From positions 1 to 64,000 of IMG/VR virus record IMGVR_UViG_3300036466_000103: a DNA stretch of 64,000 nucleotides. The stretch is one strand, 5' to 3'. The translations under genes were made by a program, and so were the position numbers. Positions 31,624 through 36,899 of this stretch are shown here, in pieces. The notes beneath the pieces were generated by a model. The model was not told where the DNA came from and did not search any database. It saw only the letters and a program-made list of their open reading frames with translations. Numbering within the stretch: the stretch's first letter is position 1; each line of letters begins with the position of its first letter. Source of the DNA: a virus.

Positions 31624-33318
31624 GTGGAGAGAATTAAACATGATGTTGTGCACTGCACATCTGACAAGGGCCTACAAGTCTTTTACGATGATGGAAAGAA
31701 CAAGTTTACCGGCTACTGCTTTTCCTGTGCCAGCCGAGGACTTGAGGCTTACGTAGAAGATCCCTATAACGGTAAGGCACCAAAACCCCCAGGGAAAAGA
31801 TCTGAAGATGATGTACAAGAAGAAATCCAAGAAGTTCGAAACCTAAAATCTCCCGCTGAAGAGTATCGAGGCATTCATCCTCAGTATTTCGCAAAGTCTG
31901 GCATTAAGCTGGCTTACAGTGAATATGACGGAAAGACACCCTTTACATTCAATTTCCCCTATACAATCTCAGGAAAGCTGGCAGGCTACAAAGCAATTAT
32001 GCTTGGCAAGAAAGCTATGTGGTCTATCGGGGACATCAAGGGCGCAGACCTGTTCAACTGGGAGATTGCAAAGAAGTCTGGAGTTAAACGTCTCTACGTC
32101 ACTGAGGGTGAATTCGACTCAAGAGCCCTGGAGATGATGCTAGAGTCACATGCAAACAAACGCAAGAGTCAGTACAATAAGTTCGCAGTCACTAGTCTTC
32201 CTCACGGAGTAGGTAGTGCAGTAACCACACTTGGTCGGATGCGCAAAGAGATTGATAAGTTTTTTACTGAGATTGTGCTGGTATTTGATAATGATGAGGC
32301 AGGTAAGAAAGCAGTAAAAGATGTACAAAAGATTATGCCTGATGTTAAAGTTGCTGTTTATCCAACTAATGCTAAAGATGCCAACGAAGCTTTATTGAAA
32401 GGTGATGGTGATTTGTTTGCAGATTTCTGTATTTGGAAAAGTGCAAAACCTGTAAGCGAAGGCGTGGTAAACGTTTCCACTGTCTTGACTCGGGCACTTG
32501 AGCCACCTCAAATGGGGCTTTCTTATCCGTGGCAAGAGCTTACAGATATGGTCTATGGACAACGTTTTTCTGAGGCCACTTGTCTAGGTGCTGGTATCGG
32601 CCTCGGCAAAACTTTGATTGCTCATGAAGTTGGCGCGTGGAATATTACAGAACATAAAGAAAAAGTTTTCATGGTACTTCTTGAAGAAGAGAACGAACAT
32701 ACACTGTGGAACGTGGCAGGCAAGATTGATTCTATTCCGTATCACCGCCCTGAAATTGCCAAAGATAACTGGGAACAGTTTCAAGAGACTGCACGGAGCC
32801 TTGAGGGTAGTTTGTTAATGTGGGAATCTGAGGGTAATGCTGAAAACCGATTTAATATTGAGGAAATTCTCAAAGCAATTCGGTACAATACAATGGAATA
32901 TGGGGTTCGCTTTCATGTGATTGATAACATCACACGGCTTGTAGACCACTTGTCCAGTGGTGAAGCGAATGAATTTATTAATAAATGGTCATCTGAAATT
33001 GCAAACTTGGCATCTGAATTGAAAATCCATATTGATATGTTCAGCCACTTGAATGCACCGAAAGGAAAAGATGCAAGGGACCATGAGTCAGGTGGCGAAG
33101 TGTTGGCATCACAATTTACTGGTAGTCGCGGTATTATGCGTTCTTTCCCTGTGCTAATGGGGTTTGAGCGTAACAAAATGGCAACAGAAGGGCGAGCTTC
33201 TAATTCTTTTATTAGTTGCATTAAAAACCGTAAGTACGGTGGAGAAGGGCGGATTAAGACTCAGTATCAACCTAATGGTCGCCTCATCAGTTACCCATGG
33301 GAGGGTGAACAACTTTGA
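31624..33318 (+). CDS. bifunctional primase-helicase (T7 gp4-like)
   Basis: Zn-finger-like CTSDK..GYCFSC, TOPRIM LYVTEGEFD..VFDNDEAGKKA, Walker A GAGIGLGKT, and HVIDNITRL. The start is uncertain (GTG 31624 after GGAGG, or TTG 31585). Confidence 0.85.
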   Translation: MERIKHDVVHCTSDKGLQVFYDDGKNKFTGYCFSCASRGLEAYVEDPYNGKAPKPPGKRSEDDVQEEIQEVRNLKSPAEEYRGIHPQYFAKSGIKLAYSEYDGKTPFTFNFPYTISGKLAGYKAIMLGKKAMWSIGDIKGADLFNWEIAKKSGVKRLYVTEGEFDSRALEMMLESHANKRKSQYNKFAVTSLPHGVGSAVTTLGRMRKEIDKFFTEIVLVFDNDEAGKKAVKDVQKIMPDVKVAVYPTNAKDANEALLKGDGDLFADFCIWKSAKPVSEGVVNVSTVLTRALEPPQMGLSYPWQELTDMVYGQRFSEATCLGAGIGLGKTLIAHEVGAWNITEHKEKVFMVLLEEENEHTLWNVAGKIDSIPYHRPEIAKDNWEQFQETARSLEGSLLMWESEGNAENRFNIEEILKAIRYNTMEYGVRFHVIDNITRLVDHLSSGEANEFINKWSSEIANLASELKIHIDMFSHLNAPKGKDARDHESGGEVLASQFTGSRGIMRSFPVLMGFERNKMATEGRASNSFISCIKNRKYGGEGRIKTQYQPNGRLISYPWEGEQL

Positions 33319-33941
33319 AAGAGTTTATAAATGATGCCGATTACAAAGTAACAAAGATGGTTGATGGTAAACAAACTATGTGTCCATTCTTCAGGACATG
33401 GAGAAACATGAAAGAGAGGTGTAACAAAGCCAGCAAAAGAAATCCAAGTTATTTGGAATCTGGAGTTATTGACGACTGGTACACTTTCTCCAACTTCAAG
33501 GCTTGGATGGAAGGGCAACCATGGCAAGGTAATGAACTGGACAAGGACATACTAGGCGACGGCAAACTGTATAGTCCTAATACATGTTGTTTTGTACCCA
33601 GTTGGGTGAACTTGCTTTTGGTGCTAAGCAACTCAAGTCGCGGAGAATACCCGGTAGGTGTATCTTATATGAAGCGGCCTTCTGGTATGAGCAGAGAGTT
33701 GGTTAACCCTTACCAATCTTATGTTAAGAGCGGAGATAAGAAAAAGCACCTTGGTATGTTTTCAACAGCAATGCAAGCTCACAAAGCTTGGCAGGCAGAA
33801 AAGATTGTTTTAATGGAAGCTGCCGTGCTAAGGTACTCCGAAGATAGGAGCTTCCAACAGCCTGTATTTGATGCCCTACAATCAAAAGTCCTTGCTTTAC
33901 GACAGGATTTGGTAGAAAATAGGGAGACTGTTTCATTATGA
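33315..33941 (+). CDS. free-standing homing-endonuclease-like protein with an AP2-type C-terminal domain
   Basis: Paralog of 48763..49407 (TW.NM.ERC, F.AWM, LDKD...YSP.TC.F.P, P.GVS). Located between the primase-helicase and polymerase genes. Confidence 0.45.
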   Translation: MKEFINDADYKVTKMVDGKQTMCPFFRTWRNMKERCNKASKRNPSYLESGVIDDWYTFSNFKAWMEGQPWQGNELDKDILGDGKLYSPNTCCFVPSWVNLLLVLSNSSRGEYPVGVSYMKRPSGMSRELVNPYQSYVKSGDKKKHLGMFSTAMQAHKAWQAEKIVLMEAAVLRYSEDRSFQQPVFDALQSKVLALRQDLVENRETVSL

Positions 33942-33957: not shown

Positions 33958-35943
33958 TTGAAGAGTATCTATAACTGGAAGAAGGCAACCGTTGCCGACT
34001 TGGAGTCTGATGGATTTCTGGATGTTGCTACAAAGCTCCACGTCCTAGGCTTCCAGATGAATGAAAAGGACATTCAGACTTTTAATGGAACATCCGAGTC
34101 TGCCAGGATTGTAAAGTTTTTTCAGTGGCACATGGAGAATGAGATACCTATCGTAATGCACAAGGGTATTTCATTCGATATACCATTGATGGAGAAGTTG
34201 TTTAATATTGACCTCTCTAAGCTGATGCTTATCGACACACTGGCCCTTAGTTGGTACTTGAACTTCGACAGGCGAACCCACGGTCTGGGGACTTTTCACG
34301 AGGACTATGGAATTGAAAAGCCCGTAGTAGAGGACTGGTCAGATCAACCGTATGAGGTTTACCAAAATCGAGTTTGTGAAGACGTAAAGATTAACCAAGC
34401 ATTGTGGAAAGACCTCAAGCGACGCTTGATTGAGATGTACACAACTACCAAGCTTGAGATTGATTCTGGGGCTGTCGGCGGAAAGAGGGTCAGTGAAGAC
34501 GAGTCTATTGCAATTGATGAGTTAGTGGGTCTTCCTGTAGAGGAACACATTAATAGGATCTTAACCTTCTTAATGTTTAAGATGGACTGCGCCCGTCTAC
34601 AAGAAAAGACTCGCTGGGAGGTTGATACAGAACTTCTTTTTGACTCAGAGAAGAAACTTGAGGCAATCGTAAACGAAACAACCTTAGCCCTTGAGGCAGT
34701 CATGCCAAGGGTTCCTCAGTATACAAAGAAGGAAGCCCCAAAGAAGCCCTTCAAAAAGGACGGCACCTTATCATCAACAGGAACTAAATGGAAAGAGTTA
34801 CTAGAGGTATATGAAGCTAAAGAGGTTGATGAGTTCGGAACCTTAAAAGTCGAGGACACTGAAACTAAAGGAGTATTCAAAGCCCTTAGTGGCTATGATG
34901 AGCCAAAGGCATCCTCTCCTGCTCAAGTAAAAGCTTTGCTGTACTCGCATGGATGGGTTCCTACAAGCTTTCGTTATGAGAAAGACGAGGTTGCCTTTAA
35001 TGCCTGGATAGCCAGAAAGCCAAAAGAGGGTTCACATAACAGCAAATGGTCTGAGTGGAAGAACAGCAAGCCTGAAGAAAGGGCTATCCCACAAATTAGT
35101 GTTGGGGGCGATGACGGAAAGGAACTCTGTGAATCTGTTCTTGAGTTGGCAGATGAAGTGCCATCCATTCGTAAGTATGCAGAGTACAACGTAGCTAAAC
35201 ATCGGCTAGGGGTTATCAAAGGATTCATTCGGGACATCAAAGATGGAAAGTGGCTCCAAGCGAGGATTGGGGGCCTAACTAATACATTAAGAGTACAACA
35301 TAGGGAAATTGTAAACCTGCCTGGTGTAGACAAGCCTCATGGAGAGTTGATTCGTGGAGGGCTTGTTGCGGGAGAGGGAAAAATTCTCTTGGGTTCCGAC
35401 ATGTCTAGCTTGGAGGATCGGGTTAAACACAGCCTGATGCTGCCTCATGATCCTGAGTATGTTGCAACAATGCAAGAGGAAGACTTCGATCCCCACATTC
35501 TTATGGCTCTTACGGCAAAAATGATTAGCCAGAAGGAGTTTGATGATTTTAAGCGGGGTGAGAAGTCTTCTAACGCAAAGGCAGCCCGGAAAAAGGGTAA
35601 GACAACCAACTATGCATCTGTGTACAATGCAGGCGCTGCAAAAATTGCTCAGGCAGCGGGAGTAAGCCTAAAAGAAGGCAAAACTCTCCACGAGGCTTAC
35701 TGGAAGCTTAATTGGTCTGTAAAAGCTATTGCTGAAGAGCAGGTTGTTATCAAAGACAGCCGAGGTCGTAAGTGGTTGGTTAACCCGATTAATGGGTTTT
35801 GTTATGCCTTGAGGTCTGAGGCAGACAGGTTTTCTACTTTGGCCCAGGGTAGCGGCTCCTACTTCTTTGATATGTGGGTGGATAATATCCTCACAGAGAC
35901 AGAGAAAAGGTATGGCAAGAAAACGCTAACAGGAAGTTTCCAT
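33958..35943 (+). CDS. family A DNA polymerase, exon 1 (3'-5' exonuclease, thumb, and palm through motif B)
   Basis: TTG start after AAGGAG. Contains a TNYASVYNAG-type motif B region. The frame would otherwise stop 9 codons into the intron. Confidence 0.85.
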
Positions 35944-36193
35944 AAACATCATTGTGGCCTTGCATTGTGAAGTGCATTGAATAACTTTGCTTAAACGGGG
36001 AAAGCTAAAGGATGCGCAAGAGTCCCATGCTAACCTACCGTGCTAAATTGTCGAGAGACATAAAAGCCTAGAGACTATCCTTCGGGAGTAAGCAGAGAGT
36101 TCTGCTGAAATAGCAAAGAGCCTCCCTTTGAGGCTGTGATATAGTCCGACACCAGTTGAAAAGCTGGGTGCCTAACGAGCACAAAACAGTAGG
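35944..36193 (+). ncRNA. group I self-splicing intron (IA2, td-like), ORF-less
   Basis: The 5' exon ends in CCAU (35940-43), which can pair with GUGG (35954-57). Core strings: UAAACGGGGAA (35991-36001), CCGUGCUAAAUUGU (36038-51), GACUAUCC..GGGAGUAAGC (36073-), GAUAUAGUCC (36138-47). Terminal G at 36193. Removal restores ...GSFH/DECIL.... Confidence 0.8.
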
Positions 36194-36352
36194 GATGAAT
36201 GCATCTTGTGTGTGAAGGATACACAAAAATTTAAAGATGAGTTTTCTTCTTTAATAAGATCTGCCGTAGAAAAGGTAAATGTAGATTTCAAGCTTCGAAG
36301 AGCATTGGGCTGTGAGACTCAGTCTGGTAAGCGATATTCAGATATTCACTAG
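36194..36352 (+). CDS. family A DNA polymerase, exon 2 (motif C HDE through the C-terminus)
   Basis: Encodes DECILCVKDTQKF...GKRYSDIH*. The HDE motif spans the junction, and the ending G..Y..IH is typical of a Pol A C-terminus. Confidence 0.8.
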   Translation, partial: DECILCVKDTQKFKDEFSSLIRSAVEKVNVDFKLRRALGCETQSGKRYSDIH

Positions 36353-36362
36353 AGGAGGGAAA

Positions 36363-36899
36363 ATGAGGGAAGTTTGGAAACCGATAATTCTTGATGATAT
36401 TCAAGAGCGTTATGCTGTTAGTAATCTAGGTAAAATTATTGATCTTAAGACTGGTAAATGTTTAGTCTGTCACGATAATGGTGCCGGATATATGAATGTG
36501 GGTTTACAGGGACCAAAGTCAAAGGTCAGGATTCGTTACGTACACAGGTTGGTAGCTATTGCATTTCTTGAGAACCCTGATAAACTACCCCAAGTTGGTC
36601 ATCGTGACCATACAAGATCTAATAACGTTGTCTATAATCTATACTGGACAACACAGAAACAGAATACCCGTGACGGGATTGATGCAGGGAGAATTAATGC
36701 CAATCGGCCAAAGACAAACCGAAAAGTAACAGAAGCTATTATTTGTGAGATTGTTCTGCTGCATAGTCAAGGTAGAGGCATCAACGAAATTGCCGGAATG
36801 CTGGGCTTTCCTCGTACCACCATCTCTAGCGTCTTCAATGGCAGGAGCAATAAAGAGCTGTTTGTGTTTGCAAGCAACGAGCTTAAAAATAATCCTTGA
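36363..36899 (+). CDS. HNH homing endonuclease (NUMOD4-like N-terminus, C-terminal HTH)
   Basis: WKPI..YAVSNLGKI, HRLVAIAF, HRDHTRSNNVVYNLYWTTQKQN, and GINEIAGMLGFPRTTISSV. RBS AGGAGGG. Begins 11 nt after polymerase exon 2. Confidence 0.8.
   Translation: MREVWKPIILDDIQERYAVSNLGKIIDLKTGKCLVCHDNGAGYMNVGLQGPKSKVRIRYVHRLVAIAFLENPDKLPQVGHRDHTRSNNVVYNLYWTTQKQNTRDGIDAGRINANRPKTNRKVTEAIICEIVLLHSQGRGINEIAGMLGFPRTTISSVFNGRSNKELFVFASNELKNNP

Follow-up and report, generated by a model that had tools for sequence, protein, structure and literature searches.

All of the group I introns that one study compared in phage DNA polymerase genes belong to subgroup IA2 (PMC3428280). According to that study, those of the T7-like phages PhiI and W31 lie at position 881 of Escherichia coli Pol I, the His of the catalytic HDE motif (motif C), while the introns encoding the nicking HNH endonucleases I-HmuI, I-HmuII and I-BasI in the Bacillus phages SPO1, SP82 and Bastille lie at E. 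coli position 674, not 881 (PMC3428280). How such introns spread has been cast in a "collaborative homing" model (PMC3984707). That article describes an intron without an open reading frame (ORF) in the psbA gene of cyanophage S-PM2, together with the free-standing endonuclease F-CphI (Zeng et al. 2009, via PMC3984707), and T3 gene 5.3, which adjoins its polymerase gene (Bonocora & Shub 2009, via PMC3984707). The present analysis concerns an insert of 250 nucleotides (nt), positions 35944..36193 on the plus strand of a viral DNA stretch of 64,000 nt (hereafter the window; positions 1 to 64,000 of IMG/VR record IMGVR_UViG_3300036466_000103). Sequence comparison and a modelled RNA structure indicate that this insert is very probably a self-splicing IA2 group I intron, hosted by the family A DNA polymerase gene of a phage that is uncultured and Felix-O1-like (Ounavirinae-related); catalysis itself we infer.

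The archetype of the subgroup is the td intron of phage T4, and the insert resembles it in having an early translation stop inside the intron and in lying at a conserved motif of an enzyme that serves nucleotide or DNA metabolism; the gene is a different one. The td intron carries the GIY-YIG endonuclease I-TevI, whereas the insert is ORF-less: the ORF list contains no plus-strand frame of at least 30 amino acids (aa) lying fully within the 250 nt. The gene is arranged as follows.

33958..35943, plus strand: exon 1 of the family A DNA polymerase gene, 662 codons, ending ...GSFH (CAU); from the ORF list, Pfam DNA_pol_A and tblastn.
35944..36193, plus strand: predicted group I intron of subgroup IA2, 250 nt, ORF-less; from Rfam model RF00028, a manual structure on four homologues and a 250-nt indel between two related loci (L009 and L004).
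35968..35970, plus strand: in-frame UGA within the L2 tetraloop, stopping translation of unspliced messenger RNA (mRNA) eight codons into the intron.
36194..36352, plus strand: exon 2 of the polymerase gene, DECILCV...SDIH and stop; in the predicted structure its first 4 nt (GAUG) form P10 with 35947-50.

The frame that opens at 33958 runs to ...KKTLTGSFH, its final CAU being 35941-43, and continues as KHHCGLAL to the UGA at 35968-70; an earlier note on this DNA had described this ending, with a stop nine codons on, and a rereading of the sequence and its ORFs confirms every coordinate it gave. Deleting 35944-36193 (250 nt), as that note had proposed, joins the exons in phase into an ORF of 2145 nt and 714 codons, with the predicted spliced junction TTCCATGATGAATGC in complementary DNA (cDNA), and the translation of 36194-36352 reads DECILCVKDTQKF...SGKRYSDIH followed by the stop. 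Pfam DNA_pol_A matches the spliced product with an expectation value (E) of 1.5e-14. The polymerase region found no match by megablast among 50,697 phage genomes, and in the absence of a close sequenced relative the searches were therefore made at the protein level. By tblastn against the same genomes the spliced product matches 598 records, the best of which, from Otagovirus and Flaumdravirus phages of Pseudomonas, span the whole query (100%) as a single piece with about 58% identity; these two genera are the nearest named relatives by protein comparison. The earlier note had expected no gap at FH/DE, and this is what the alignments give: the boundary is ungapped in 261 phage records at a coverage of at least 80%, in human Pol nu (4XVI), where "LTGSFHDECILCVKD" of the 714-aa product stands against "LVAQIHDELLFEVED", and in phiPsa374, whose uninterrupted polymerase reads "LSGSFHDECIICIGD" at this point and is colinear, like its relatives, with the product over its length.

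Natural alleles with and without the insert define its boundaries. A protein-guided scan of IMG/VR yielded 64 loci, onto which the spliced protein was mapped. Two of them, L007 and L009, have inserts of 249 and 250 nt exactly between codons 662 and 663, and a fourth independent copy, L289, came from a scan of metagenomes. In ten relatives with 74-85% amino-acid identity (L003-6, L008, L010, L028, L043, L048 and L049) the gene runs uninterrupted through 714-717 codons, and an eleventh without an insert at 662/663, L025, has a different one at motif B. L009 and the intron-less L004 are collinear at 88-93% identity (92-93% in the flanks) except for a clean indel of 250 nt. Intron-less alleles read CCAUGAUG at the insertion point, so the boundaries of the indel are unambiguous and equal to the predicted splice sites, and G36193 is the sole position for the 3' end that is compatible with that sequence. 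Between copies the intron is 84-92% identical, although synonymous sites of the exons are saturated.

The RNA itself also has the features expected of the class. The earlier note had suggested running RF00028 on the insert region, and in a search limited to 35850-36300 (451 nt), where the filters are looser, the model matches over its full length (1-253) at 35934-36168, with 50.5 bits and an E of 5e-12. From this alignment a secondary structure was drawn by hand, with these predicted elements.

35940..35957, plus strand: P1 hairpin, CCAU/AA (35940-45; the slash marks the splice site) with UUGUGG (35952-57), with a U35943.G35954 wobble at the 5' splice site; invariant in the four copies.
35947..35950, plus strand: P10 guide CAUC in the P1 loop, pairing with GAUG at 36194-97 over 4 base pairs (bp).
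35961..35976, plus strand: P2 hairpin with a GUGA tetraloop; two compensatory pairs.
35985..36118, plus strand: P3 (35985-91 with 36112-18), enclosing P4, P5/P5a and P6/P6a.
35995-36000 with 36034-41, plus strand: P4, from the manual structure.
36042..36067, plus strand: P6/P6a with a GAGA loop, P6a being UGUC-GAGA-GACA.
36071..36147, plus strand: P7 pseudoknot, GAGACUA 36071-77 (A36072 bulged) with UAGUCC 36142-47; the predicted guanosine-binding helix.
36078..36106, plus strand: P7.1 (36078-87, UUCG loop), GUA (36088-90) and P7.2 (36091-36106), the IA2 signature; four compensatory pairs in P7.2.
36119..36182, plus strand: P8 (36119-35), J8/7, P7', P9 (36152-67, GAAA loop) and P9.1 (36168-82); compensatory pairs in P8, P9 and P9.1.
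36193, plus strand: terminal guanosine (omega G) at the 3' splice site, invariant in the four copies and preceded by G or A.

Subgroup IA2 is defined by P7.1 and P7.2 between P7 and P3', joined by G-U-A (PMC3428280), and the insert is placed there because it has P7.1-GUA-P7.2, which also bears out the "td-type" label of the earlier note. P7 agrees with the Rfam consensus AGACUA...GAUAUAGUC. The other structural points made in that note fall into place as well: CCAU at 35940-43 pairs with GUGG at 35954-57, U35943 wobbling with G35954, the last intron base is G36193, and the four core elements that it quoted appear in the drawing as P3/J3-4/P4, P4'/P6, P7/P7.1 and J8-7/P7'.

When the four copies (window, L007, L009 and L289) are mapped onto the drawn P1-P10 structure, 99.7% of the cells are paired, the sole unpaired one being an A.C in P5a of the window copy, and 11 pairs in P2, P7.2, P8, P9 and P9.1 show compensatory double changes. 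None of 500 column shuffles reaches this level, and sliding the partners by 1-3 columns leaves 0-1 such pairs. Paired columns vary about as freely as others (29 of 140 variable, vs 21 of 111 unpaired), and the changes in them are compensated. Exon 2 supplies an independent line of argument: among intron-bearing alleles the proportion of nonsynonymous differences (pN) in it is 0.06-0.22, vs 0.70-0.94 for synonymous ones (pS). These proportions stand in for the ratio of substitution rates (dN/dS), which was not computable for most pairs because synonymous sites are saturated. Exon 2 is thus under purifying selection, which means that it is translated in frame with exon 1 and that the insert must be removed at the RNA level.

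Some observations weigh against a splicing intron. The RF00028 score of 50.5 is just at the Rfam gathering threshold of 50, and filtered Rfam scans of the whole 64-kilobase (kb) window, run in "gathering" and "evalue" modes, do not report the polymerase intron, because the speed filters drop it. Covariation is confined to peripheral helices; the core helices P1, P3, P4, P6, P7 and P10 are invariant, so there is no covariation evidence on them, and the sample consists of four copies that are related to one another. Could the insert then be a decayed intron that no longer splices, in a polymerase pseudogene of a phage that is defective or relies on another polymerase? The marginal score and the A.C mismatch in P5a would fit such decay. 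Four independent contigs, including phage contigs of 53 kb and 84 kb, nevertheless keep the insert with its compensatory changes and invariant core, exon 2 remains under strong purifying selection beyond the stop, and no second polymerase gene was noticed among window ORFs of at least 90 aa, in a search that was not exhaustive; decay is very improbable.

A truly split polymerase, assembled without RNA splicing from an N-terminal protein of 670 aa and a peptide of about 50 aa with its own translation, is less likely still, and we give it next to no weight. An ORF with a TTG start does exist at 36206-36352, and the earlier note had named a separately initiated C-terminal fragment as a finding that would speak against splicing. 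This TTG is, however, the earliest start codon in the frame of exon 2 and lies past the codons for D and E, and a peptide begun there would lack these catalytic residues; the sequence shows no ribosome-binding site ahead of 36194, intron-less relatives are continuous at this point, and the intervening sequence has a conserved, covarying ribozyme fold. An intein is rejected since the insert of 250 nt is not a multiple of three and reaches a stop nine codons in, and translational bypass was likewise rejected as an explanation. Together, the alleles, the covariation, the indel and the selection on exon 2 make a pseudogene, an intein or a split gene unlikely.

For the self-splicing IA2 intron that is preferred here, the structure suggests the following course. 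In the pre-mRNA, the CCAU that ends the 5' exon would pair with the internal guide UUGUGG to form P1, with the U.G wobble at the splice site, and a free guanosine bound in P7 would attack after U35943. The guide CAUC would hold the first four bases of exon 2 (GAUG) in P10, and the freed 3'-OH would attack after the terminal G36193, ligating UUCCAU/GAUGAA. Ligation would restore ...GSFH-DECI... and thereby motif C in a polymerase of 714 aa. Translation of the unspliced RNA would end at UGA 35968-70 and yield a 670-aa protein that lacks the catalytic Asp and Glu, and we infer that replication would depend on splicing.

How does this intron relate to those already known at motif C? In K1F, the annotation gives the polymerase coding sequence as a join of two pieces that enclose a homing endonuclease; residues 4-653 of T3 polymerase map to one side of the K1F insert of 598 nt and residues 654-704 to the other. 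The insert is itself a group I match, and the junction reads CAU/GAUGAG (locus L085, between 2503 and 3102). In L264, a T7-like locus from a metagenome, an intron of 615 nt occupies the same His/Asp boundary, again CAU/GAUGAG, and encodes an HNH protein 53% identical to T3 gp5.3. The window intron shares with the T7-like introns the insertion ...CAU/GAUGA... between the His and Asp codons (T3 H653 and D654), the P7.1-GUA-P7.2 arrangement, the P10 guide CAUC, and the sequences AGAGACUAUCC and GAUAUAGUCCGACAC. The P1 and guide of L264, CCAU followed by AAACAUCAUUGUGG, are identical to those of the window over 18 nt, although 8 of the 14 intron bases in this stretch are dictated by the exon sequence. 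A covariance model built from the ORF-less copies (R1) scores K1F at 21.5 bits (E 5e-5), and nhmmer matches L264 with E values of 3e-5 and 7e-4.

There are also differences. The window intron has 250 nt and no ORF, its P6a being a 4-bp stem with a GAGA loop, whereas the T7-like introns reach 598-615 nt and contain in P6a an HNH gene of the gp5.3/I-TslI type. The sequences of P3-P6 differ, the endonuclease near the window intron is of another HNH family, and the window polymerase is Felix-O1-like, with no similarity to the L264 exons detected by tblastn. K1F, L264, PhiI and W31 thus show that neither the insertion site nor the subgroup is new, and probably not the lineage of the RNA either; the novelty lies in the host lineage and in the lack of an ORF within the intron. 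The genome paper on Felix O1 reports no introns in that phage (PMC3185647).

Searches with the intron sequence returned little else. Against phages, blastn found only a 59-nt match in an Erwinia jumbo phage: a stretch of pEa_SNUABM_40 (MZ443780.1, 146295-146355) with 81% identity to the P4'-P6 region of the intron. It lies where the 267-kb genome has no annotation and may be another unannotated intron. Exact 15- or 16-mers of the intron core occur in 14 loci among viral contigs besides L007 and L009; none reaches the group I gathering threshold, and they were treated as chance or unrelated. A 17-mer from P1 had 109 matches in metagenomes, approximately the chance number by a rough estimate, of which nhmmer kept three: L240 (on the same contig as L007), L289 and L264. 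The P7-P7.1 pattern was rejected as specific to this intron after more than 119 viral matches, most of which share only the 3' half of the intron, so that it represents the broad IA2 core. A more distant ORF-less relative (46 bits by nhmmer) occurs in the IMG/VR loci L092 (7685-7909), L112 and L134, just upstream of sequence encoding "...RNKKMNSLYGAVAN...", which resembles the KxxxNSxYG motif of family B DNA polymerases; if this holds, it would be another polymerase family interrupted at a catalytic motif.

With no endonuclease inside the intron, attention turns to free-standing genes on either side of the polymerase.

36363..36899, plus strand: free-standing HNH gene of the I-HmuI family, 178 aa, a candidate trans-acting homing enzyme; 10 nt past the polymerase stop, with an AGGAGG ribosome-binding site.
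33315..33941, plus strand: second free-standing gene resembling a homing endonuclease, 208 aa, between the primase-helicase and polymerase genes; phrog_953 "HNH endonuclease", E 5e-73.

The downstream protein aligns with I-HmuI (PDB 1U3E; E 1.5e-14) over residues 13-123, with GH.D...NN..NL.W.TQK.N conserved, and matches phrog_59 (E 7e-41) and the NUMOD4 domain (32.6 bits, cut-off 23.4), HNH_3 falling just under its cut-off (23.1 bits vs 24.8). Its nearest match is from an Ounavirinae phage from seawater, and the gene is intact and under purifying selection in three loci (pN/pS about 0.2). Homology to T3 gp5.3 was considered and dropped, as BLASTP finds no alignment. I-HmuI and the window protein are of similar size (174 and 178 aa), and both are tied to a family A polymerase gene with an IA2 intron; I-HmuI, I-HmuII and I-BasI are, however, encoded within their introns, whereas the window gene stands free, 170 nt past the insertion site. 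The arrangement recalls that of S-PM2, where an ORF-less intron in a conserved catalytic motif is likewise accompanied by a free-standing endonuclease gene in the adjacent intergenic position, and that of T3, whose endonuclease gene lies directly downstream of a polymerase gene that lacks an intron. Cleavage at the insertion site has been demonstrated in both of those systems and is a prediction for the window pair, whose enzyme is I-HmuI-like, neither of the Endo VII type to which F-CphI belongs nor gp5.3-like.

Two features of the alleles suggest that the intron and this gene could travel together. Within this polymerase type the HNH gene follows the polymerase in three of the four intron-bearing alleles (window, L007 and L289) and in none of the 11 intron-less ones (Fisher about 0.009, uncorrected for phylogeny). 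In addition, two intron-bearing alleles appear mosaic. Over the first 1800 nt of the polymerase, L007 is nearest to the intron-less L003 (0.90) and L289 to the intron-less L043 (0.88), but the similarity of each to its backbone relative ends 15-60 nt upstream of the insertion site. Over the final 100 nt of exon 1 together with exon 2, the two resemble each other at 0.85 and their backbone relatives at about 0.55-0.70, and the block common to them comprises the junction, the intron, exon 2 and the HNH gene at 85%. Such a pattern would be expected from homing with co-conversion, in which a nearby break is repaired from a donor with intron, exon 2 and HNH gene, as the collaborative-homing model has it (PMC3984707). 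It is quite possible, a little short of an even call, that the ORF-less intron is spread in trans by the adjacent I-HmuI-type HNH enzyme: the enzyme would introduce a nick or a cut close to the insertion site in polymerase alleles that lack the intron, and the intron would shield its own genome by splitting the HNH target.

Several observations count against homing in trans. L009 has the intron and no HNH gene, HNH homologues follow intron-less polymerases of 38-39% identity in L059, L060 and Pseudomonas phage vB_PsaM_M1, and the HNH gene has diverged at synonymous sites to the same depth as the host genes, which gives no hint of a joint transfer in recent times. Could the intron splice while the HNH gene is an independent selfish element ("intron-less homing") settled in the gap after the polymerase, the intron persisting or moving by recombination, by co-conversion as a passenger, or by reverse splicing? 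The first two of these observations favour such independence, as does the lack of relationship between this HNH family and the endonuclease that the T7-like introns encode at the motif C site. The linkage within this polymerase type, and the block exchanged between L007 and L289, which starts so close to the site and runs through the HNH gene, speak for a partnership instead. The independent gene is accordingly rated, just as tentatively, at about equal likelihood with homing in trans. The fuller claim, that intron and I-HmuI-type HNH gene form a working collaborative-homing pair at the very motif C site where the T7-like intron carries an unrelated gp5.3/I-TslI-type HNH gene, is more doubtful. 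If it were true, a single intron lineage would have had partners from two endonuclease families at one site, and the intron would in addition give the phage immunity to its own nuclease.

The other flanking ORF, at 33315-33941, has no Pfam match above threshold. No homologue stands between the primase-helicase and polymerase genes among the close relatives (at least 74%), while homologues are found at that position in the more distant L014, L026, L046, L052 and L057, and elsewhere in many loci. It is probably another free-standing homing-type gene flanking the polymerase, to judge by these matches. L059-L061 have primase-helicases 75-77% identical to that of the window next to polymerases that are only 38-39% identical and shorter, and in L059 and L060 these polymerases are directly followed by HNH genes 75% and 58% identical to the window's; vB_PsaM_M1 (L083) likewise has an uninterrupted polymerase followed by an HNH gene 59% identical. 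These comparisons suggest that the whole polymerase gene has been exchanged for another while its neighbours, a nuclease gene among them, were conserved.

Further introns occur in the window and its relatives. The gathering scan of the whole window found a second group I intron at 298-566 (RF00028, 96.8 bits), and the region 298-616 on the plus strand interrupts a portal protein gene, with phrog_113 matches on both sides. Its 5' splice site is predicted after U307, and the candidate 3' sites after G607 or G616 would both restore the frame; R1 scores it at 55-63 bits, relating it to the polymerase intron, and a filter-free R1 scan of the window found no third intron of this type. Larger inserts (about 550-1000 nt) occupy polymerase motif B at residues 549-551 (KTTNYASVY) in L002 (phage KIL4, 4765-5754), L025 (5648-6655), L050 and L052, and L055, L057 and L066 have a larger insert at about query residues 532-555. 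None of the larger inserts is matched by R1. In KIL4 both the polymerase and the primase/helicase are annotated as two-piece joins. Given the inserts at motif B, this polymerase lineage has at least two intron sites.

No new kind of element is revealed by these results, which add a Felix-O1-like lineage to the phages that have an intron at the catalytic HDE motif of the replicative polymerase. Unless the intron is recognised, annotation would report a truncated or split polymerase in the window phage and in at least three environmental phages related to it. Default-filter Rfam scans of whole contigs miss the intron, and other short IA2 introns like it may regularly escape notice in phage contigs. 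The locus also provides a natural allele series, comprising the intron with and without the HNH gene, eleven intron-less alleles, and a block exchanged between polymerase backbones, and this series makes the collaborative-homing hypothesis directly testable.

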